A stretch of DNA of 64,000 nucleotides from Candidatus Multiplicimicrobium inquinatum (GTDB taxonomy: Bacteria > Omnitrophota > Omnitrophia > Omnitrophales > Aquincolibacteriaceae): NCBI GenBank assembly GCA_002344825.1, contig DDUN01000003.1, forward strand, positions 1,775-65,774, written 5' to 3'. Under the pieces are notes generated by a model that searched no databases, was not told the DNA's origin, and saw only the letters and a list, made by a program, of their open reading frames with translations. This document shows positions 2-63,461 of the stretch, one piece after another. The first letter of the stretch is position 1; each line of letters opens with the position of its first letter. Position numbers and translations under genes: made by a program.

Positions 2-409
2 GATTTGGGACAAGTTCCAAGACAAAGAATGACTTGGGGCGCGGAAGTAAAGCCTTTGGCGCGCCTAGGCGAATACTTTGAAGGCTTGCGGTTTCGCCTA
101 GACGGCAGTTTTACGGGAAAACAACATCCGCAAAGTTACGAATCAACCAGCCAGGCTATGCTTAATTCCGCGGGAGGAGCGGGGCATGTGATTAAGTCGT
201 ATACGTTGTGGAATTTTTTGGCAAGCTACGCCCTTAAAAATCAGGAAATTTATTTTAAAATAAACAATCTCTTTGATAATAAGTATTATTCCCGTGCCGT
301 TGTTTCCGAGATTTTTGCTCCCGGGACTTATCCGGCGGGAGTGGATACATTTGTGAATCCCGGCGCGCCGCGAGAATATTTAGTGGGAATGAGATGGGAA
401 ATCGAATGA
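2..409 (+). CDS. TonB-dependent outer-membrane receptor, C-terminal beta-barrel portion (5' end lies outside the window)
   Basis: C-terminal barrel-like sequence (…NNLFDNKYYSR…, alternating aromatic/polar strands). It is immediately followed, with a 16-nt overlap, by a BtuF/FhuD-like binding protein and FecCD/ABC ATPase genes. Confidence 0.6.
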   Translation, partial: DLGQVPRQRMTWGAEVKPLARLGEYFEGLRFRLDGSFTGKQHPQSYESTSQAMLNSAGGAGHVIKSYTLWNFLASYALKNQEIYFKINNLFDNKYYSRAVVSEIFAPGTYPAGVDTFVNPGAPREYLVGMRWEIE

Positions 410-1260
410 GAAGACAGAACCAAGAACTAAGAACCAAGAACCAAGTTTCGTTTTTGCGGATCATTTTTTGTCTTGGTTCTTGGTTCTTAGTTCTTGGTTC
501 TTTTTCAGCGCATGGCGCGGAAAGAATTGTTTCGCTTAATGCCTGCACGGATGAATTACTGCTCCAATTAGCTTTGCCCGAGCAAGTCGCCGGAGTAACG
601 CGTTTTAATCATTCGCCTCAAAGCAGCGAAGTGCTGAATCAAAATCCGCATATCAGTAAACTGTCGTCCGATGTTGAAAGCATTATGAAGACCAACCCGT
701 CGGTTGTTTTGGCAGGCCCTTTTTCAAACCCACTGCTCATCAATCAATTGAAGCAATTGAATATTCCGATTGTTCATTTGGCTGTTCCCGGCAATTGGAG
801 CGATTTGGATAAAGCGGTGGGCCAGGTTTCTGCTTTGCTTAAACGAGTGCCCGCCGGCGAAGTGTTGCAGAAAAAAATCCGGGAACTTAGCCGTTTTGAC
901 GGGCAGACGCGCTGGCAGGGAAAGCGCGCTGTTTTTTGGAGCGCAGCTGGGCATGTTTCTGGGAAAAATACTTTTGAAAATACAGTTTTAACGACACTGG
1001 GCTTGATCAATGTTTCGGAAACGGAAGGCTATGCTTTTTTATCCGTAGAAAAATTGATTCAATTAAAGCCCGCTGTCATTATTGTGACGCAAAATCCTGA
1101 GCTCAAAAACTCATGGAGCCATGAAACTTTATTTCATCCTGCCTTGAAAAAAGCTTTGCCCAAAATTGAGTATTTACACATTCCGGAAGAAGCCGTAAGT
1201 TGTGCTTCTGAGTACACGGTTGAAGTTGTCGGGAAGCTGATTGCGGACGCGAAAGCATGA
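394..1260 (+). CDS. btuF: Periplasmic substrate-binding protein of a cobalamin/siderophore ABC importer (BtuF/FhuD family)
   Basis: N-terminal signal-peptide-like segment (RR/K n-region, hydrophobic core, AHG-AE). The mature N-terminus ERIVSLNACTDELLLQLALPEQVAGVT resembles the BtuF start. Operon context: receptor, FecCD permease and ATPase follow. Confidence 0.7.
   Translation: MGNRMRRQNQELRTKNQVSFLRIIFCLGSWFLVLGSFSAHGAERIVSLNACTDELLLQLALPEQVAGVTRFNHSPQSSEVLNQNPHISKLSSDVESIMKTNPSVVLAGPFSNPLLINQLKQLNIPIVHLAVPGNWSDLDKAVGQVSALLKRVPAGEVLQKKIRELSRFDGQTRWQGKRAVFWSAAGHVSGKNTFENTVLTTLGLINVSETEGYAFLSVEKLIQLKPAVIIVTQNPELKNSWSHETLFHPALKKALPKIEYLHIPEEAVSCASEYTVEVVGKLIADAKA
417..500. repeat. Perfect 29-bp inverted repeat (arms 417-445 and 472-500, 26-nt loop) built from tandem heptads (aagaacY x3.5)
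   Basis: Left arm gaaccaagaactaagaaccaagaaccaag; right arm cttggttcttggttcttagttcttggttc, which is the exact reverse complement. It lies at the btuB-stop/btuF-start junction and encodes the predicted BtuF signal peptide. Confidence 0.9.
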
Positions 1261-2231
1261 AAAAAATCAATTTTATTTTAGGAACTACCCTCGCGGGTTT
1301 CTTTCTGATTTCACTTCAGAACGGGGCCCTGGACGCGGGGATTGGCAAGCTTTTAACAGGAAAAATGTCTTCCGCTGAAAGCGCCGTGTTTTGGCATTTG
1401 CGCTTTCCCCGAAGTCTGCTGGCAATTCTTGTCGGAGCCGCTTTGGGGCTTTCCGGCGCGGCGATGCAAGGCCTTTTGCGCAATCCTTTGGCAGAGTCAA
1501 GCGTTTTGGGAATTTCAAGCGGCGCCGTGCTTGGCGCGATGATCGCGCTTTATTCCGGTTTAACGGTATGGGGAATTTGGATTTTACCTCTGGGAGGTTT
1601 TTTTGGCGCGCTTGCCGCGGCCGCGCTGGTTCTTGTTTTCTGCTTTCGCCATACCAGTTTGCTCGGACTTATTTTAGCCGGAACCGCGCTGAATACGCTT
1701 TTCTTTGCCCTGAGCAGTTTGCTGCTTAGCTTTTCAAAAAATCCTTATGCCGTGCTCGAAGTGATTTACTGGCAAATGGGCTCATTTGAAAATCGAACGT
1801 TAGCGCAAACAGCCGTCGTCGCGCCTTGGATCATTTTAGGTTCGTGGATGCTTTTGCGCACAGGTTCCTCACTTCAGCTTTTGACTTTGGGTGAAGACGT
1901 TGCGCGCAGCAGTGGAGTTTCTGTCTCCAAGACGATGCGGCAGGTGATTATGGGAACCGCGGTTGCTGTTGGCGCGGCAGTTTCGGTTTGCGGATTGATT
2001 GGTTTTGTCGGGTTGCTGGTGCCGCATTTAGTTCGCCCGTGGGTTGGGCATGATCCCGGCAAATTGCTTTTTCCAAGCGCGCTTGCGGGCGCGGTGTTTT
2101 TGTTGATGGCGGACACTTTTTGCCGTTTTTCGGTTTTTCCGGTTGAACTCAAAATCGGAGTTTTGACCGCGCTTCTCGGCGCGCCTTTTTTTATTTATTT
2201 GGCTTTTAAAACCAAGGCACAGCTGACATGA
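1257..2231 (+). CDS. btuC: FecCD-family ABC permease (BtuC-like)
   Basis: About 320 aa, polytopic and hydrophobic, typical FecCD length and composition. ATGA start/stop overlap with the flanking genes. Confidence 0.75.
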   Translation: MKKINFILGTTLAGFFLISLQNGALDAGIGKLLTGKMSSAESAVFWHLRFPRSLLAILVGAALGLSGAAMQGLLRNPLAESSVLGISSGAVLGAMIALYSGLTVWGIWILPLGGFFGALAAAALVLVFCFRHTSLLGLILAGTALNTLFFALSSLLLSFSKNPYAVLEVIYWQMGSFENRTLAQTAVVAPWIILGSWMLLRTGSSLQLLTLGEDVARSSGVSVSKTMRQVIMGTAVAVGAAVSVCGLIGFVGLLVPHLVRPWVGHDPGKLLFPSALAGAVFLLMADTFCRFSVFPVELKIGVLTALLGAPFFIYLAFKTKAQLT

Positions 2232-2902
2232 AATTTCTTTGCGAAAAATTAAATTGTGGCTTCAGAGAAAAGCAGGTTTTAAAAAATATTTCCGGTAAAT
2301 TCGAAGCCGGAAAAATAACAGCGATATTGGGTCCTAACGGGTGCGGCAAATCAACTTGGATCAGAGCTTTGTTGGGATTGGTCAAACTCCAATCAGGTAA
2401 GGTTATTGGGTTGCCTGAAAAAAAAGGGTATTTGCCTCAAAAAAAGGAAATTTACTGGCCGCTTACTTGTGAAGCAATTGTGGAGTTGGGTTCTCGCGCC
2501 TCGGGGCTCGGGGCTTCGTCTCTGGATCGGTTGGGGATTGGGCACTTGAAAGATAAAAGAATCGATGAAGTTTCAGGAGGCGAGCGCACCTTGGTTTTAT
2601 TGGCGCGAGCTTTGCGTGATAGACCCGACTTGATTATCGCGGACGAGCCTGTTGCTGAACTTGACCCTAAGCATCAGATGCGTGTGATGCAGGCGCTCAA
2701 AGAGGAAGCCGCTCGCGGTGCGGCGGTGATTGTTACGATGCATGACATTCAGTTGACTGCTCAATTTGCCGATTTTGTTTTCTTAATGCGTGATGGGAAT
2801 GTTGTTTTTCAAGGCGCTCCTGATGCAGTTCTTAATCCCGGGAATTTAAAAACTGTTTTTGGAGTTATTTTTGTTGAAGACAAAGGATTGTATGTCCGTT
2901 AA
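2228..2902 (+). CDS. btuD: ABC transporter ATP-binding protein (BtuD-like)
   Basis: Walker A GPNGCGKST, ABC signature VSGGERTLVLLARAL, Walker B LIIADEP. Confidence 0.85.
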   Translation: MKFLCEKLNCGFREKQVLKNISGKFEAGKITAILGPNGCGKSTWIRALLGLVKLQSGKVIGLPEKKGYLPQKKEIYWPLTCEAIVELGSRASGLGASSLDRLGIGHLKDKRIDEVSGGERTLVLLARALRDRPDLIIADEPVAELDPKHQMRVMQALKEEAARGAAVIVTMHDIQLTAQFADFVFLMRDGNVVFQGAPDAVLNPGNLKTVFGVIFVEDKGLYVR

Positions 2903-3482
2903 AAATTTGAAAACGAAAGCGCGCGATCAAGCTCCGCGGAAGCACGCTAAGCCGAAGCGCGCACCTGATAAAGGACTTATTGTCGTTTATACGGGAGATG
3001 GAAAAGGTAAGACCACCGCGGCGATGGGAACCGCGTTGCGGGCTTTGGGTTATGGTATGAAAGTGGCGGTGGTTCAATTCATTAAGGGAACCTGGCCGTC
3101 AGGGGAAGAACAAGCTCTTAAAAAAATAAAGGGATGTCAGTTTCACAAAATGGGCGAAGGCTTTACTTGGGATACAAAAGACTTTGAGCGCGACAAGTTG
3201 AAAGCGGATGAAGGTTGGAAGTTAGCTCAAAAGTATATTCAAGACTCAAAGACACAGCTTGTTATTCTGGATGAAATTAATTGCTGTTTAAAGTATGGTT
3301 TTCTTGATTTGAAAGACATGTTGCGCGCCCTGAAAAAAAAGCCTCACATGAAGCACGTGTTTTTGACCGGGCGCGGAGCGCCTAAAAAACTGATCGAATT
3401 AGCCGATCTTGTAACGGAAATGAAATGTATCAAACACCCATACGATAAAGGAATTTGGGCTCAGCGCGGCATCGACTTTTGA
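2892..3482 (+). CDS. cobO: Cob(I)yrinic acid a,c-diamide adenosyltransferase (CobO/BtuR/CobA family)
   Basis: P-loop YTGDGKGKTTAAMG, ~196 aa from the ATG at 2892. The longest ORF begins at 2859, so the start is uncertain. Confidence 0.75.
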   Translation: MSVKNLKTKARDQAPRKHAKPKRAPDKGLIVVYTGDGKGKTTAAMGTALRALGYGMKVAVVQFIKGTWPSGEEQALKKIKGCQFHKMGEGFTWDTKDFERDKLKADEGWKLAQKYIQDSKTQLVILDEINCCLKYGFLDLKDMLRALKKKPHMKHVFLTGRGAPKKLIELADLVTEMKCIKHPYDKGIWAQRGIDF

Positions 3483-3489
3483 AAATTTA

Positions 3490-3601
3490 TTGAAAATGAT
3501 TTGTCTGCTTCGTTGCATTCTTCGCTTCCTTGTGCGGCGTATTGCTGCATACGCCTCCGCAGGCGCTCAAATGCGCCTTGCATCCAAACCATTTTGAATA
3601 A
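3490..3601. repeat. REP-like large imperfect palindrome, copy 1 of 3
   Basis: Conserved core cttgtgcggcgtaT-tgctgc-Atacgcctccgcagg with self-complementary outer arms (ttgaaaatgatttg … caaaccattttgaa). Located at the 3' end of cobO. Confidence 0.75.
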
Positions 3602-3637
3602 ATTTTTGAGATTCCAAAGAGCTGGTTTTGGAATGAA

Positions 3638-3931: not shown

Positions 3932-5534
3932 GCCGCTTTTCCTCGGATTTATTAATAATCGATTCGTTTGGTTATCTTTTTTATTTTTCTCTCCGTTGGT
4001 TATCTATTTTCCTGTGTTGGGGCATGGGTTTTTGCACTTTGATGACCGCCAAATTGTGACTCAGAACTCCGAAGTACTGAAGGGGGTTACATGGGAAAGC
4101 ATAAAATGGGCTTTTCTTTCCTGGGACACGGGCAATTGGATTCCGCTGACCTGGATAAGCCATATGCTGGATGTGCATTTTTTCGGTCTTAAAGCAAGTT
4201 GTCACCACGCTGTAAGTATTCTTTTTCATTCCGTGAACGGAGTTTTGATTTTTCAGCTTTTTAATCGCATGACTCAACGGCATTTTTTGAGTTATGGTGT
4301 CGCGCTGGTTTTTGTTTTTCATCCGATGCATATTGAATCAGTCGCGTGGGTTTCAGAGAGAAAGGATGTGCTTTCAACTTTTTTTACACTGCTCTCATTT
4401 TTGTTTTATTTGTTTTACGCGCAAAAGTCCAAAAATTATTTTGCGGCATACCTGGCAAGTGTTTTGTTTTGTGCTTTTGCTTTAATGTCCAAGCCGATGG
4501 CCGTTGCTTTGCCCCTGCTCCTGCTTGTTTTTGACTATTGGCCGCTGGCCCGAATTAACGGGATGAAAAGCTTTTGGAACTGTCTGCCTGAAAAAGTCCC
4601 CATGATGCTGATGGTGTGCGGTGTTGCGGGTGCGACATGGCTTGCGCAGAGTCAAATTGGGGCTGTTTTCAGCTTGTCTGAAATGTCGATGAGTTATCGT
4701 TTTGAGATGCTCTTTGCCGCTTTGGGTAGTTACAGCTACAAGTTTTTAATACCTATTCAGCAGACTATTTTTTATCCGCCCTTTTCTGATCAAGAAATGC
4801 ATTGGAATGCTGCGTTGGGATTGCTGCTTTTTCTGATGTGGGGTGTGTTTGCGGTGCAGCGCAAAAGCGCGCGCTGGATTTTTACCGGCGGAATGATTTT
4901 TTTTGTTTCACTCTTTCCGGTTTTGGGTTTGGTGAAAGCCGGCGGTCAGTCTATTGCGGAACGTTATACTTATTTTGCCTATACAGGATTGGCGGTATTA
5001 CTTTTTTGGGGTGCCGCCGCATTGATTTCAGCCAAGCCTAAGGCGAAGCCATGGATTATTACATTTTTTATAGTTTGGAGTTTGCTGGGGCTGCTTTTAA
5101 GCGGTGTACGTGTGTATGAGTGGCGCAGTACCGAAGCACTTTTCCGGTCTGCTGTAAAAATTCACCCTCATAATCACGTCGCGCATAAAGTTTTGGCGGA
5201 TCACGCTTATGCTCAGGGTGATTTGCCGGGTGCCGCAAAGTATCTTGTTCAGGGATTAGAAAATTTACCTGCCGAAGCTGACTCCGCAAGACCTCAATAT
5301 GAGCTGAATTTAGCGATTATTTACCATCAGCTGGGGGAAATGGAACGGGCTACAAAATTTTATGAGAGAGTTTTGGTGAAAGAGCCTTTCCGCTTTGATG
5401 TGCGGGTTACTTTGGGCGATATTTATATTAAATTGAAGCAGCCCGCGCAGGCAAAAATGCACTATGAATTTTTGCTTCGCATTTTTCCTGACAACCAAGA
5501 TTTTCAAAGGCGGCTGGAAGAGTTGCGCGGTTGA
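3930..5534 (+). CDS. Polytopic membrane protein of the PMT/GT39-like (GT-C fold) family with C-terminal TPR repeats
   Basis: N-terminal multi-TM region with an HFDD motif in the first loop. C-terminal ~150 aa are TPR-like (AYAQGDLPGAAKYLVQGLE…, LGEMERATKFYERVL…). This architecture is common among bacterial DUF1736/PMT_2-TPR proteins. Confidence 0.55.
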   Translation: MPLFLGFINNRFVWLSFLFFSPLVIYFPVLGHGFLHFDDRQIVTQNSEVLKGVTWESIKWAFLSWDTGNWIPLTWISHMLDVHFFGLKASCHHAVSILFHSVNGVLIFQLFNRMTQRHFLSYGVALVFVFHPMHIESVAWVSERKDVLSTFFTLLSFLFYLFYAQKSKNYFAAYLASVLFCAFALMSKPMAVALPLLLLVFDYWPLARINGMKSFWNCLPEKVPMMLMVCGVAGATWLAQSQIGAVFSLSEMSMSYRFEMLFAALGSYSYKFLIPIQQTIFYPPFSDQEMHWNAALGLLLFLMWGVFAVQRKSARWIFTGGMIFFVSLFPVLGLVKAGGQSIAERYTYFAYTGLAVLLFWGAAALISAKPKAKPWIITFFIVWSLLGLLLSGVRVYEWRSTEALFRSAVKIHPHNHVAHKVLADHAYAQGDLPGAAKYLVQGLENLPAEADSARPQYELNLAIIYHQLGEMERATKFYERVLVKEPFRFDVRVTLGDIYIKLKQPAQAKMHYEFLLRIFPDNQDFQRRLEELRG

Positions 5535-7526: not shown

Positions 7527-7829
7527 TTGTCGGTGGTCTGGCCTCTGATCTATACTCTGATTATGAGTGATCCATTCAATGGTGAAGAAATCCAGTTTCC
7601 GGTGGTATGCTATTTTAAGATCATTGCCGATAATATGCCGGGCGTTCGAATGATGCTTGAAAAAAAACTGCAGGACTTGGGCGTTGTAAATCCCTTGTCA
7701 GAGGGAACTCATTCTTCGGGCAATAAGTATGTGACTTATAACCTTGAAGTCAAAGTTGCCAGCAAGGAATATATGGCCCAGCTGGATCACGCTATCCGCA
7801 CCACCAAGCATGTTCGTATGGTGCTGTAA
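7527..7829 (+). CDS. YbeD/DUF493-family small protein
   Basis: About 100 aa; FPVVCYFKIIADNMPGV… resembles the UPF0250/YbeD family. Confidence 0.5.
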   Translation: MSVVWPLIYTLIMSDPFNGEEIQFPVVCYFKIIADNMPGVRMMLEKKLQDLGVVNPLSEGTHSSGNKYVTYNLEVKVASKEYMAQLDHAIRTTKHVRMVL

Positions 7830-7949
7830 TTCGCTGAAAAAGCTTCGTCTGCGTCGTTGCATGCGCATTCGCTTGTGCGGCGTAGGTTTCACTACGCCTC
7901 CGCACTCACTTCCATGCGCCTAGCAGCCCAAGCTTTTTGATCGAATTAA
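7828..7949. repeat. REP-like large imperfect palindrome, copy 2 of 3
   Basis: Core cttgtgcggcgtaGgtttcaCtacgcctccgcac, with outer arms taattcgctgaaaaagctt … aagctttttgatcgaatta. Located at the 3' end of the YbeD-like gene. Confidence 0.75.
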
Positions 7950-8359: not shown

Positions 8360-8590
8360 ATGTTTAAAATAAAATCTGCTACCCTTGTTATTTGCGTACT
8401 TGTTTTCTTCTTGAATTTGTCTTTGTGTGATATGGCCTTTGCGTATATTGATCCTGGAGCTGGGAGCGCTTTATTTCAGCTTATTATAGCTGGTCTTGCC
8501 GGCCTTTTATGGATAGTTAAGGTTTATTGGCAGAAAATTATAAGTTTTTTTTCTAGGAAAAAAAACGGCAAGAAAACGCCTCCCCAATAA
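8360..8590 (+). CDS. Small membrane protein (76 aa, two predicted TM helices) of unknown function
   Basis: Two hydrophobic segments and a basic C-terminal tail (RKKNGKKTPPQ). No recognisable family. Confidence 0.4.
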   Translation: MFKIKSATLVICVLVFFLNLSLCDMAFAYIDPGAGSALFQLIIAGLAGLLWIVKVYWQKIISFFSRKKNGKKTPPQ

Positions 8591-8600
8591 TCTGTTATTT

Positions 8601-9983
8601 ATGGATCAAAAAAAGATTTTGATCGCCCCGCTTTCCTCGTCTTTTCGTGATCCCGCAGGTTTTGTGTTTAAGGCTTCTCAAGGTATTCAGCGTGCCGTAA
8701 CACATTATGGCCGTGCTTATTACGATGTTCTCATGCAGTCTCCTCTTTATGAGGAGTTGGTTCAGAAAAAATGGCTTGTGGCACACCGTGAGGTTAAAAA
8801 TGAAGACGGGAATTTCTATAAGATTTTAGAGCCTAAGCAAATTCCCGTCATTACCTATCCGCATGAATGGAGTTTTTCTCAGTTTAAAGATGCGGCTCTT
8901 TTAACACTGAAGATACAGCTTCGTGCGATGGATTTGGGACTGAGTCTGCGTGACGCGACACCGTACAATATTCAGTTCGTAGGAACGGATCCCATTCATA
9001 TCGATACGCTTTCATTTGAGAAATTAATTAACCAGCCTTGGAAAGCGTATAAACAATTTTGCGAAATGTTTTTAGCTCCGCTGGCTCTCATGTCCGAAAG
9101 ATCGCTGAATTTTAATAAGTATATGGCGGTAGACTTAAATGGCATGGATTTACTTTTATCAAGCCGGCTTCTTCCGTGTCTTTCTTGGCTTAATCCGATA
9201 TATCTGATACATTTACATTTACACGCATTGAGTCAAAAAAAATATGCTGATTCATCTCATGACACCAAAAATATAAGCATGTCTCCGCAGCGTCTCAAGA
9301 TGTTAATTCACGGGTTATTTGATGGTGTTCAGTCCATAAGGCTTCGCAATCATAAGACAGAGTGGAGCCATTATTATGAGTCTCAAACTCATTACGGCGA
9401 AGATGCGCATAATTTTAAAGCCGATCAAATTAAGCGTTGGATTCTTGATATAGCGCCGAAGCAAACTTTAGATTTGGGGGGCAATGACGGCAAATTCAGC
9501 CGTATTGCTTCCGAATTGGGATCTTATACGCTGTGCGTGGATTTGGATGCGAATTGTATTGAAAGAAACTATCTCAGCTCAAAAACAAATGGAGATAGAA
9601 ATATGCTCCCTGTTTTTCTCGATTTGTCAAAACCTTCTCCACAAATTGGCTGGAGTTGCACAGAGCGGGATAGCTTTTTTAACAGGGTTGCGCCAGATTT
9701 AACCATGGCCCTTGCCTTGATCCATCACCTCAGAATCAGCTTATCCGTTCCACTTGATCTAATTGCATTGTTTTTTAGCAAAATCAAAGGTTATCTTATT
9801 ATTGAGTTTGTGCCGAAAGATGATCCCATGGTTCAAAAACTGTTACTTACACGTGAAGATATATTTTGGGATTATTCAGAAGAGAATTTTAAAAAGTGCT
9901 TTGGTCAGTATTTTCGATTTGTTGAGCAGGTCCAGATTCCTGGGACAAACCGCAATCTCTGTTTGCTTCAATCCAATTCATGA
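8601..9983 (+). CDS. Two-domain protein: N-terminal protein-kinase-like fold (LPS/Kdo-kinase or APH-like) fused to a C-terminal class I SAM-dependent methyltransferase
   Basis: Catalytic-loop-like LSLRDATPYNIQF (compare HRDxxPxNI) followed by IHIDT (DFG-like). C-terminal methyltransferase motif I LDLGGNDGKF…CVDLD. Confidence 0.45.
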   Translation: MDQKKILIAPLSSSFRDPAGFVFKASQGIQRAVTHYGRAYYDVLMQSPLYEELVQKKWLVAHREVKNEDGNFYKILEPKQIPVITYPHEWSFSQFKDAALLTLKIQLRAMDLGLSLRDATPYNIQFVGTDPIHIDTLSFEKLINQPWKAYKQFCEMFLAPLALMSERSLNFNKYMAVDLNGMDLLLSSRLLPCLSWLNPIYLIHLHLHALSQKKYADSSHDTKNISMSPQRLKMLIHGLFDGVQSIRLRNHKTEWSHYYESQTHYGEDAHNFKADQIKRWILDIAPKQTLDLGGNDGKFSRIASELGSYTLCVDLDANCIERNYLSSKTNGDRNMLPVFLDLSKPSPQIGWSCTERDSFFNRVAPDLTMALALIHHLRISLSVPLDLIALFFSKIKGYLIIEFVPKDDPMVQKLLLTREDIFWDYSEENFKKCFGQYFRFVEQVQIPGTNRNLCLLQSNS

Positions 9984-11551
9984 AGCTATCGTTTAAAGAT
10001 CATCCGGTTTTATATCCTTTTTTATTTTCAATTTACTCTCCGTTGTTCATTTTTTCAAATAATGCAAGCGTAATAAGCCTCGGTTTATTTTTTGAAATCT
10101 TAATGGTTGTTTGTGCTGGCGTTACTGTTTTGTATTTGATCCTGAAACAACTCCTAAAAGATTCTCATCGCGCCGGATTTTTTTTTATTGTGATTTTGGC
10201 TTTTTTTATGCTGTATGACAATTTATTCGATTTTGGGATCGGCTATAAAATCGGCGCTTTTCTTGTTTGGCGCCACAAGTATATCCTCCCGGCTTGGACG
10301 CTTATCTTTTTTTTATTCGCCTACTGGTTTCTGATTAAAAAAGTAAAGGTTTCACCAAATTTGACTGGAATTTTAAATGTGGTAGGTCTTGTTCTTGTTT
10401 TGTTGAGCGTATTCAACACTGTTCTTTCGCTGAATGATAAAAGCATACAGAGGAAAGAGGTGGCTGACCCTAAAATAATCCGATCAGAGAGAGGGGTTGT
10501 CGCTGAATCAAGCAATCCCGATATTTATTATATTATTTTAGATATGTATGGCGGGAATGAGGTTCTGCTAGATTATTTTAATTATGACAATACGGATTTT
10601 TATGCTCAGCTCAGAAATCGGGGTTTTTTTGTCGCGGACCGCAGTGTTAGCAATTATGACATTACGCGGCGATCGCTTCCGTCATCTCTCAATATGCGGT
10701 ATCTTGATTTGGAGAACGATTCACAAGATCAAAGTGATTATGCTGATTGGCATAGCGAACTGGTAAAGAACAGTGAGGTTTCTCGTTTTTTAAGAGCGAA
10801 AGGTTACCGATATATCAATGTTGGTTTTAAAAATGAGTATGCCGATGAAAATTATTTTGCCTCTGCGCGTGAAGCAAATGCTTTTGAAAGGTATATTTAT
10901 TACAAAAGTTTATTGGAGCGAACCTTGTTTAAGTATCCGTTTGGATTGTATAGCCCGTCTATCGGAGCAAGTTATCGGAATTCGATCAGTTATCAGTTTA
11001 ATGTTATGCGTGATATCGCCCGATTGGAAGGGCCTAATTTTGTTTACAATCATATTATTTCGCCGCATTGGCCGTATGTGTTTGATAAAAACTGTGAGCC
11101 CACATCTGTATTAAAATCTATCCGTATGGGACAGGGCAAAATGTATACGGACCAGATCCAGTGCGTGAACATTAAAACCCTTGAAGCCATCGATGCGATT
11201 CTTAAGGAGAAAAAGGGAAATGTTGTCATTCTGATTCAGGGGGATCATGGACCCGGCTTCGGATCGGCATCAGATTTTCGCCTGAATCCGGAATGGGTCA
11301 AGCAAAGACATATGATTTTAAACGCGTATTTTTTCCCGCAGGGAAAAATAAGCGAACAGCTTTATGGAGGAATCAGTCCGGTCAACTCATTTAGAGTTGT
11401 CTTTAATGAACTATTTAATCAGAACTTGGAGTTATTTCCCGATAAGGCATTTGCTTTTGAGAATAGCAGGCTTATTGATGTTACAAGCTTGATTCAAAAA
11501 CATGCTAGTAAGCAGAATCAAAGAAGTGTTAGTGATTTAAATCAACCCTAA
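9980..11551 (+). CDS. Membrane-anchored sulfatase/alkaline-phosphatase-superfamily enzyme (LtaS/EptA/OpgB-like phospho-transferase)
   Basis: Five N-terminal TM helices, then a soluble domain containing ILIQGDHGP (the Asp-His metal-ligand pair of the sulfatase family) and an IYYIILDMYGG N-terminal core motif. Confidence 0.5.
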   Translation: MKLSFKDHPVLYPFLFSIYSPLFIFSNNASVISLGLFFEILMVVCAGVTVLYLILKQLLKDSHRAGFFFIVILAFFMLYDNLFDFGIGYKIGAFLVWRHKYILPAWTLIFFLFAYWFLIKKVKVSPNLTGILNVVGLVLVLLSVFNTVLSLNDKSIQRKEVADPKIIRSERGVVAESSNPDIYYIILDMYGGNEVLLDYFNYDNTDFYAQLRNRGFFVADRSVSNYDITRRSLPSSLNMRYLDLENDSQDQSDYADWHSELVKNSEVSRFLRAKGYRYINVGFKNEYADENYFASAREANAFERYIYYKSLLERTLFKYPFGLYSPSIGASYRNSISYQFNVMRDIARLEGPNFVYNHIISPHWPYVFDKNCEPTSVLKSIRMGQGKMYTDQIQCVNIKTLEAIDAILKEKKGNVVILIQGDHGPGFGSASDFRLNPEWVKQRHMILNAYFFPQGKISEQLYGGISPVNSFRVVFNELFNQNLELFPDKAFAFENSRLIDVTSLIQKHASKQNQRSVSDLNQP

Positions 11552-61021: not shown

Positions 61022-61441
61022 ATGCCTTTTAAGAAGCCCGAGAACCGACGTAAACATGCTCGTGTTGCCTTGTGCCGGCTCGTAAAAATTCAGACTGAAA
61101 AGAGCACCGGACCTTCTGAGATTTCTCAAACGTATGACCTTTCCGAAGCCGGAATGCGTTTTCACGTAACAGATATTTCAAGTACCGGTTTTAAATTCAG
61201 TCTGCCGGCCATTGAGGGCGATTTACCGTTTGCCAGCTTAAAAAAGGGCGACAAGCTTCATTTCCGCATTAATTTGGATCCGGATCACCCCGAGGTTGCT
61301 TTGCTTGGAAAAGTCGCCTGGGTGTCTCGTGAGGCCGTTTCCGGCGGCATGATCCGGGTTAGATCAGGCGTTGAGTTTGTCAACGTCTCCGACGCTGATC
61401 GGAAACTGATACAAGTCTACGTTTCTGCTTTTCAAAAATAG
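61022..61441 (+). CDS. PilZ-domain protein (c-di-GMP receptor)
   Basis: RxxxR motif NRRKHARV and D/NxSxxG motif YDLSEAGMRF. Confidence 0.65.
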   Translation: MPFKKPENRRKHARVALCRLVKIQTEKSTGPSEISQTYDLSEAGMRFHVTDISSTGFKFSLPAIEGDLPFASLKKGDKLHFRINLDPDHPEVALLGKVAWVSREAVSGGMIRVRSGVEFVNVSDADRKLIQVYVSAFQK

Positions 61442-62999: not shown

Positions 63000-63341
63000 A
63001 TGAAATTGATTACAGCTATTATTCAGCCCGATAAATTGGATGAAGTCCGTGAAGCCTTGCATGCCGCGGAGATTACGCGCGTGACCGTGAGCCGCTGCAC
63101 CGGCCGCGGCCATCAGGCGGGTGAAGAGCTTTATCGCGGACAATCCGTGGTGCCGACTTTGATTCCTAAGGTGCGCATTGATATTGCGTGCAATGAGGAA
63201 TATGTCGATGCCGCGATTAACGCGATTTTAAAATCAGCGCGTCATGGTGACGGCAAAATCGGTGACGGTAAGATTTTTGTGACCGCGCTGGAGCGTTGCA
63301 TTCGTATCCGCACCGGCGAATCCGGCGGTGTTGCGATCTAA
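63000..63341 (+). CDS. glnK: Nitrogen regulatory protein P-II (GlnK type, linked to amtB)
   Basis: MKLITAIIQPDKLDEVREAL…TGRGHQAGEELYRGQ (T-loop Tyr) …GDGKIFVT. Confidence 0.9.
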   Translation: MKLITAIIQPDKLDEVREALHAAEITRVTVSRCTGRGHQAGEELYRGQSVVPTLIPKVRIDIACNEEYVDAAINAILKSARHGDGKIGDGKIFVTALERCIRIRTGESGGVAI

Positions 63342-63461
63342 AACGGCTGAAATGGTCTTATCGCGGCGTTGCAAGCTTCGCGACATTTGTGCGGCGTAGG
63401 TTTCACTACGCCTCCGCAGTCGCTTACTTGCGCCTTGCGATAAGACCATTTGAACCGTTTT
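63340..63461. repeat. REP-like large imperfect palindrome, copy 3 of 3
   Basis: Core tttgtgcggcgtaGgtttcaCtacgcctccgcag with long outer arms aaaacggctgaaatggtcttatcgc … gcgataagaccatttgaaccgtttt. Located at the 3' end of glnK. Confidence 0.8.

Follow-up and report, generated by a model that had tools for sequence, protein, structure and literature searches.

How can a long, perfect palindrome lie exactly where one gene ends and the next begins, in the segment that has to encode a signal peptide? This question is raised by a locus near the start of a 64-kb window (by which we mean the whole 64,000-nt stretch analysed, from contig DDUN01000003.1 of Candidatus Multiplicimicrobium inquinatum, phylum Omnitrophota), where a gene for a TonB-dependent receptor runs into a gene for a periplasmic substrate-binding protein and the junction is filled by an inverted repeat built of tandem heptanucleotides. 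We found that the signal peptide is read through this stem and that related loci keep the structure with changed sequence. With a probability of about 0.4, we infer that the palindrome, which resembles the short tandemly repeated repetitive (STRR) elements, is a cis-acting intercistronic mRNA hairpin that has been co-opted as signal-peptide coding sequence.

The earlier note on this DNA, made from the letters alone, described exact reverse-complementary arms at 417-445 and 472-500, composed of heptads. A repeat search agrees and adds one base pair: the arms of the junction hairpin (HP1) are 30 nt each (416-445 and 472-501), complementary at 30/30 positions and 26 nt apart. Both arms are period-7 arrays according to Tandem Repeats Finder, with 4.3 copies of AGAACCA at 416-445 and 4.6 copies of TCTTGGT at 471-502. 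The heptad consensus of the arms is AGAACYA / TCTTRGT, at about 4.5 heptads per arm, and the lone variant unit, AGAACTA, has an exact mirror in the opposite arm.

RNA spanning 380-530 has a minimum free energy (MFE) of -62.3 kcal/mol, beyond the -40 kcal/mol that the earlier note expected, compared with -35.2 ± 3.7 kcal/mol for dinucleotide shuffles (z = -7.4; 0/200 shuffles equal it). The DNA fold of 405-512 reaches -33.7 kcal/mol (z = -11.3), and the antisense RNA of the junction folds at -50.9 kcal/mol. No inverted repeat in the 64 kb is longer than HP1. The 29-mer of the arms occurs in the window only as these two arms (0 expected by chance), and no second copy of it with up to 3 mismatches, or of the heptad pattern, is present elsewhere in the window, which speaks against the suggestion that it is a dispersed element. 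The encoded protein recurs in independent public assemblies (NCBI, JGI, Logan and ENA; 3 contigs). Hence, an assembly artefact is unlikely.

Translation through the stem was judged from 19 orthologous receptor/binding-protein junctions in Omnitrophota metagenome-assembled genomes and metagenomes, anchored on the conserved receptor C-terminus and on the conserved mature N-terminus AERIVSLNAC. From receptor stop to mature N-terminus the distance is 86 to 131 nt, with 7 lengths that are always 2 mod 3 (18/18 anchored loci), and the reading frame through the junction is open in 19/19 loci. Four loci (L033, L036, L040 and L014) have no in-frame ATG, GTG or TTG downstream of the left arm. The orthologues start at an ATGA or GTGA overlap or, if the receptor stop is TAA or TAG, at the only ATG, 13 nt upstream. 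Hence, given the mod-3 spacing, the open frames and the loci that have no start past the left arm, the signal peptide is read through the stem, as had been claimed. The opposite case that the earlier note considered, palindrome-free orthologues translated from a downstream non-ATG start, does not apply, in view of the same 19 open frames and four loci without a later start.

Other routes to the protein were rejected. Initiation in the loop, at TTG 454 (MRIIFCLGSW...), is ruled out by the conserved mod-3 spacing and the start-less orthologues. A -1 frameshift that fuses receptor and binding protein, and selenocysteine insertion or readthrough at the TGA, came into question because the hairpin abuts the stop; these fail, since ribosomes translating the receptor meet the GGGAAAT heptamer in the wrong frame and the stop is TAA or TAG in 6 loci.

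The open reading frame (ORF) at 394/406..1260 reads MGNRMRRQNQELRTKNQVSFLRIIFCLGSWFLVLGSFSAHGAERIV..., which matches the peptide given in the earlier note. NCBI protein P0001 starts at 406, and public records are split between ATG 394 and ATG 406. The conserved DNA AGATGGGAAAT, found at 394-409 and at all orthologous loci, reads RWEI in the receptor frame and MGN in the binding-protein frame; the 'MGNR' N-terminus of many database proteins may simply reflect conservation of the receptor C-terminus.

By inspection, the translated hairpin has the parts of a Sec-type signal peptide (MRRQNQELRTKNQVSFLR / IIFCLGSWFLVLGSF / SAHG|AE), with signal-peptidase cleavage predicted at G37|A38, and this layout is kept in 22 homologues. 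The two arms can encode an n-region and an h-region because complementary codons tend to have opposite hydropathy. Just 43/2340 heptads encode a hydrophobic stretch on one strand together with a stop-free, K/R-containing polar stretch on the other; this explains why a few unit types recur, and the commonest observed units, CTTGGTT (LGSWFLV / NQEPRTK), CTTTGGT and CTTTGTT, belong to those 43. The ATGA overlap of the two genes leaves no spacer, so that the hairpin falls within the downstream coding sequence (CDS).

These coding properties raise the alternative that the segment is selected as a signal peptide only and that its complementarity is accidental. Some complementarity is indeed expected from complementary codons of opposite hydropathy, and the allowed heptads are few, but a match of 30/30 at z scores of -7 to -11 relative to shuffles, with a variant unit mirrored exactly in both arms, speaks against an accident. 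In addition, 19/20 distant homologues with ordinary signal peptides have inverted-repeat scores at background. On these statistics (the shuffle z scores and the distant homologues), we reject accidental complementarity as extremely improbable.

Comparison of orthologues, as the earlier note proposed, bears out the hairpin with a sequence that differs between loci. A significant hairpin, defined as an inverted-repeat score above the 99th percentile of background, is present in 14/19 clade loci relative to 1/20 distant homologues. The stem starts 0-10 nt past the receptor stop in 13/15 hairpin loci and at 16 nt in the other two. Heptads are found in at least 14 orthologous junctions and build nearly all stems, and they differ by locus (AGAACCA, GAACCAG, CAGACTA, CGACTAT, CCACGGA, AGACCAA, CCGCATA and GTACAWC). 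A sequence-specific protein binding site is ruled out, since the unit sequence is wholly different among orthologues. Only the window copy has a perfect stem; several orthologous stems have one mismatch per heptad, and their arms are still 5-6/7 complementary. Hence, because the mismatches recur once per heptad, each arm homogenises internally (concerted evolution).

A second small hairpin (HP2) directly after the stem is found in 14/19 loci, with the consensus TTTCAGCGC-AAG-GCGCTGAAA over codons S-A-Q-G-A-E-R. One of its pairs occurs as A-U, C-G or G-C by synonymous changes (TCA/GCT, TCC/GCG in L033 and TCG/GCC in L037), and its covariation score is 0.25, compared with 0.14 in shuffles (0/500 reach it).

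The junction varies sharply between similar backgrounds. The window and L014 are 83-100% identical in the flanks and 46% identical in the junction; for L036 and L044 the values are 76-100% and 35-50%, and for L035 and L036 mostly 76-95% and 25-50%. In its mature part, protein P0026 matches the window protein at 90% identity or more, yet its signal peptide is unrelated. Judging by these comparisons, the junction is a fast-evolving, recombining module, and the perfect palindrome of the window must be young.

Such turnover is also what would be expected if the palindrome were a selfish or mutational by-product, in which slippage, to which heptanucleotide repeats are intrinsically prone, intramolecular template switching, which 'corrects' quasi-palindromes towards perfection, and recombination would create, spread and renew a tolerated palindrome with no regulatory role. 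This reading remains a serious rival to hairpin function, and we consider it possible rather than probable. The hypervariability between near-identical backgrounds (window/L014, L036/L044 and P0026) fits it, and so do a palindrome that is perfect only in the window, with one mismatch per heptad and separately homogenising arms in the other copies, the loss of the hairpin in some lineages and the absence of a G:T over A:C bias in the stems. However, arms that homogenise separately and stay 5-6/7 complementary need either selection or very frequent copying between arms. It also fits the by-product that signal peptides accept nearly any polar-then-hydrophobic sequence and that repeat ORFs elsewhere (KNQEPR...LGSWFLVLG) are arrays of the same palindromic heptads; what it does not readily explain is why an inverted repeat persists at one position in 14/19 lineages, with many units and within 16 nt of the stop (13/15 within 10 nt), but in only 1/20 distant homologues. 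The three Watson-Crick pairs at one HP2 position, reached through synonymous changes, likewise argue against a by-product, although template switching could also yield them. As summarised in PMC4679880, Mrazek (2007) reported that heptanucleotides outnumber the other long simple repeats in most prokaryotic genomes and ascribed them to polymerase slippage, a further point for the by-product.

The operon is also mosaic. The junctions of L035 and L038 are 95% identical over 119 nt, compared with 71% for the receptor C-terminus and 56% for the mature binding protein; in two groups, receptor C-termini are 92-99% identical and binding proteins only 58-60%. Identity profiles drop or jump exactly at the junction, as they should if the palindrome were a recombination hotspot or exchangeable cassette. 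Here, extrusion or replication stalling would cause breaks, which would be repaired from a homologous donor through the conserved flanks (the receptor ...GATGGGAAAT... end and HP2); crossovers would thereby favour the junction, swapping signal-peptide modules and receptor/transporter halves. However, mosaicism occurs elsewhere in the operon too: the L035 and L038 permeases are ~90% identical (~1050-1450 nt past the receptor stop), with intervening binding-protein genes at ~50%. Since identity climbs again in the permease, there are more recombination breakpoints within the operon; hence, recombination is general and the palindrome is not necessarily its cause. A hotspot may be a consequence as much as a function and fits the other explanations; we regard it as an unlikely reason for the palindrome.

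The earlier note also raised a slipped-strand switch. Gain or loss of a 7-nt unit, whose length does not divide by 3 and which is located in the 5' coding region, would shift the binding-protein frame and turn the importer on or off, as at a contingency locus; heptamer repeats drive phase variation of hmw in Haemophilus influenzae (PMC12721329), and repeat content does vary between relatives. However, every one of the 19 alleles keeps the frame, and their lengths differ only by multiples of 3. Each arm has only ~4 imperfect units, and among the most similar junctions there are no copy-number variants (L035 and L038 differ by substitutions only). The product is also periplasmic rather than surface-exposed, and the exposed receptor upstream is unaffected. 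Hence, phase variation is very unlikely.

How, then, might the favoured intercistronic hairpin act? A stem of 30-35 bp would form on the polycistronic mRNA right after the receptor stop and act in cis. By blocking 3'-to-5' decay, by ending part of the transcription or by both, it would make the receptor segment outlast the transporter segment, and it would hinder free ribosome entry at the overlapping start. The binding protein would then be made mostly by ribosomes coming straight from the end of the receptor, which are able to unwind the stem. The A/C-rich left arm supplies the polar basic n-region and the T/G-rich right arm the hydrophobic h-region, and the hairpin would be housed in the sole coding segment permissive enough for it. 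In favour of this reading we count the significance of the palindrome, translation through it, the structure kept with changed sequence, the compensatory changes in HP2, the few heptads able to code in this way, the heptad palindromes in ordinary spacers, the published STRR and hmw hairpins and the stop/start overlaps throughout the operon. The arms would evolve by slippage-driven concerted evolution of heptads and short-patch recombination, so that structure and position are kept while the sequence turns over quickly. HP1 has 30 consecutive Watson-Crick pairs, and an RNase III substrate has ~20 bp or more of uninterrupted double-stranded RNA; cleavage itself is predicted.

Several observations weigh against a regulatory mRNA hairpin. 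The hairpin is missing in L003, L004 and L044 and degenerate in L014; hence, it is dispensable. Non-Watson-Crick stem positions comprise 16 G:T and 18 A:C, with no sense-strand bias, and the sense fold is more stable than the antisense fold in just 11/18 loci; hence, nothing favours RNA over DNA. At the TAA/TAG loci the stem is ~16-25 nt past the start, outside the 30S footprint, so occlusion of initiation is not universal. A hairpin that translating ribosomes constantly unwind also makes a weak barrier to exonucleases, except where downstream translation is rare. Finally, a run of at least 4 T follows the stem in only ~4/16 hairpin-bearing orthologues.

A terminator or attenuator that sets receptor relative to transporter expression is plausible as a prediction. 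In the window, TTTTT follows the stem at 501-505 and the loop is 26 nt; a simple terminator scan of 1-1500 gave no intrinsic terminator.

Heptad palindromes are also present outside the junction. The Omnitrophota-like contig L007 has two within 2 kb in ordinary spacers (8478-8547 and 10290-10366), directly past the stop of btuR at the end of the btu operon and past the stop of folD before panB. L019 has a hairpin in the orthologous folD-panB spacer (9690-9760) with different heptads. The units in L007 and L019 are GTAACGG.. / CGTTCCC.. and GTACGGC.. / GTACTCC.., and the two L007 copies are alike. In L005, a (CGCAACG)n / (CGTTGCG)n palindrome (4727-4800) spans the signal-peptide region of a binding-protein gene of 31% identity, at a btu-like, riboswitch-controlled locus. 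The same contig has a TACGGAG heptad array at 1883-1945, ~260 nt past the cobalamin riboswitch and inside the start of the receptor ORF. For the close clade, a period-7 scan of 334 kb of DNA gave no other heptad palindromes in the flanks.

An exhaustive HMMER search for the signal-peptide module on other proteins gave only 3 matches, two of them repeat-derived ORFs. These, P0028 and P0029, are built of repeated KNQEPR...LGSWFLVLG units on metagenomic contigs of 6.8 and 34 kb, and are probably artefacts of translating palindrome arrays of the type (AACCAAG)n/(CTTGGTT)n.

Tentatively, and with more doubt than belief, we propose that translated heptad-repeat palindromes are an undescribed class in which one regulatory mRNA hairpin also encodes a complete Sec signal peptide. 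The RNA structure would be selected across this clade of Omnitrophota and in one distant lineage or more (L005), and the sequence would be swapped as a hypervariable, recombining cassette.

The coordinates of the junction and of the genes around it are collected in Table 1.

Table 1. Features of the receptor/binding-protein junction and of the operon downstream (window coordinates).
Feature	Position	Strand	Details
TonB-dependent receptor gene, 3' end	5..409	+	C-terminus ...GAPREYLVGMRWEIE; stop TGA 407-409
Binding-protein gene start region, overlapping the receptor end	394..409	+	In-frame ATG 394 (MGNR...) and ATG 406; ATG 406-408 / TGA 407-409 (ATGA)
Lower imperfect stem extension	410..415	+	GAAGA with 502-506 UUUUC in the MFE structure (410-414 / 502-506)
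Left arm	416..445	+	4.3 heptads AGAACCA/AGAACTA; encodes polar basic n-region Q4-Q13, QNQELRTKNQ
Loop, 26 nt	446..471	+	Internal hairpin 447-451 / 456-460; encodes VSFLRIIFC; in-frame TTG 454 without Shine-Dalgarno-like sequence
Right arm	472..501	+	Heptads CTTGGTT/CTTAGTT, exact reverse complement of the left arm; encodes h-region LGSWFLVLGS
Second small hairpin, HP2	503..523	+	TTTCAGCGC-ATG-GCGCGGAAA, one A.G mismatch in the window; over codons S-A-H-G-A-E-R, around the predicted cleavage site G37|A38
Periplasmic substrate-binding protein gene	406..1260	+	Pfam Peripla_BP_2; signal peptide ~406-516; mature start AERIVSLNAC
FecCD-type permease	1257-2231	+	Stop/start overlap
ABC ATPase	2228-2902	+	Stop/start overlap
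CobA/BtuR corrinoid adenosyltransferase	2859-3482	+	Stop/start overlap

Every gene junction of the operon has a stop/start overlap. Hence, translational coupling is the norm for this operon. The receptor protein in the window ends ...GMRWEIE, and an identical C-terminus closes full-length Plug + TonB_dep_Rec_b-barrel genes at orthologous loci; this ending (...RWEIE) is without a terminal aromatic residue.

The names btuB and btuF given in the earlier note are provisional, as neither protein attains the NCBIfam BtuB or BtuF equivalog cut-off. The binding protein matches only Pfam Peripla_BP_2 (33 bits), with no BtuF match in NCBIfam, and the receptor scores 115.6 bits for NCBIfam TonB-B12, for which the cut-off is 599.7. 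CobA/BtuR is above its NCBIfam cut-off (253.8 relative to 185), and this downstream gene does point to corrinoid salvage. The best-scoring models for the receptor and the ATPase are of heme/siderophore type. Hence, the substrate of the importer is uncertain. Rfam identified no cobalamin riboswitch, either in the window or ahead of the receptor gene at 11 loci of the clade (L001, L002, L004, L035, L037-L042 and L044), and we rejected cobalamin riboswitch control there; the riboswitch is present at distant homologous loci.

Separately, the window has a dispersed element of ~125 nt at 3482-3606, 7827-7948 and 63340-63461, with a weaker copy at 61091-61204. Its core (..GTCTGC.TCGTTGCA..CTTGTGCGGCGTAGGTTTCACTACGCCTCCGCAG..ATGCGCCTTGCA..) is conserved and includes an inner hairpin, and the outer 25-nt arms that flank it vary among copies yet stay complementary inside any one of them. 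Two of the copies start at a stop codon, that of btuR at 3482 and that of ORF 7527-7829. The Rfam scan of the window gave no match to this element, which may be terminator/REP-like (REP, repetitive extragenic palindromic) or a structured RNA of no known family.

A functional HP1 would be a clean natural example of one sequence that carries two codes, a stem in RNA (or DNA) and a working export signal; the superposition can work since complementary codons are opposite in hydropathy. HP1 would then suggest a simple route by which an intercistronic hairpin is captured as a signal peptide once genes overlap. If the proposed class is real, signal peptides can be born from intercistronic hairpins and stay coupled to them. 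The locus would also extend STRR-like heptanucleotide hairpins to an uncultivated phylum, where many alleles of one locus make function testable, and it draws attention to a recombination point, hypervariable in sequence, within an operon for nutrient uptake. In practical terms, start-codon annotation is affected, and loci of this kind invite errors in assembly and PCR.

Several known systems share some of these properties. Stabilising hairpins between cistrons, such as the malE-malF REP and those of the Rhodobacter puf operon, lie in untranslated spacers. REPs are dispersed and conserved in sequence, and intrinsic terminators combine a short loop with a U-tract; the HP1 family conserves none of these features. 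Likewise, HP1 does not behave as a REP, a miniature inverted-repeat transposable element (MITE) or a Rickettsia palindromic element (RPE), since it is unique in the window, is carried at the same locus in its relatives, has near-identical copies only at the orthologous site (L035/L038) and has no evident target-site duplication around it. RPEs are mobile repeats of 100-150 bp with many near-identical copies, inserted in frame in protein genes. Like HP1, they are translated palindromic repeats tolerated at a permissive position; unlike HP1, they have no heptad substructure and add surface loops rather than a functional signal peptide. Non-triplet coding repeats are known from Neisseria opa, in which phase-variable CTCTT repeats encode the hydrophobic core of the signal peptide. 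The opa repeats, however, have no inverted partner and undergo frequent frame-shifting copy-number changes, whereas the HP1 alleles are all in frame.

At gathering score, Rfam has no match to HP1 in the window or in the 11 clade loci; at a relaxed E-value, only generic long-hairpin (miRNA-precursor) matches below threshold were returned. In cyanobacteria, STRR sequences typically consist of 7-bp units and fold into hairpins, as between the co-transcribed hupS and hupL, where the hairpin was proposed to raise transcript stability or to give translational coupling (PMC2670836). HP1 shares with them the tandem 7-nt units, the hairpin at the boundary of two co-transcribed genes, the variation of the unit and the proposed roles. 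However, STRR sequences are intergenic, belong to filamentous cyanobacteria and have many dispersed non-coding copies, whereas HP1 is from Omnitrophota, is single-copy in the 64 kb, lies in a translated signal-peptide region and has mirrored heptads in both arms.

In H. influenzae, the (ATCTTTC)n repeat of the hmw 5' untranslated region (5'-UTR) is part of a long hairpin that RNase III cuts and that sets expression post-transcriptionally (PMC12721329). As in HP1, a heptamer repeat forms an arm of a long mRNA hairpin, and RNase III naturally takes a long duplex without interruptions as its substrate. The hmw hairpin differs in that at least 10 repeats on one arm pair with a G-rich region in the 5'-UTR and copy number tunes expression; HP1 has ~4 units on both arms, lies in a coding region at a cistron boundary and has no copy-number switching seen.

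TAACTGA heptamers occur as direct repeats in marine Beggiatoaceae, Cyanobacteria and Bacteroidetes (PMC4679880). They, too, are present in 2-6 copies near gene starts and ends, occasionally in the very start of ORFs, and a post-transcriptional role is suspected. In contrast to the HP1 family, whose units are diverse, always in inverted pairs and stop-free in the frame used, they have a fixed heptamer that is nearly always direct (one indirect repeat in 170 sets) and has forward stops in all frames. Relative to known heptanucleotide-repeat hairpins, what appears novel, and is well documented by the alleles compared here, is that this one doubles as signal-peptide coding sequence and is replaced in the manner of a cassette.

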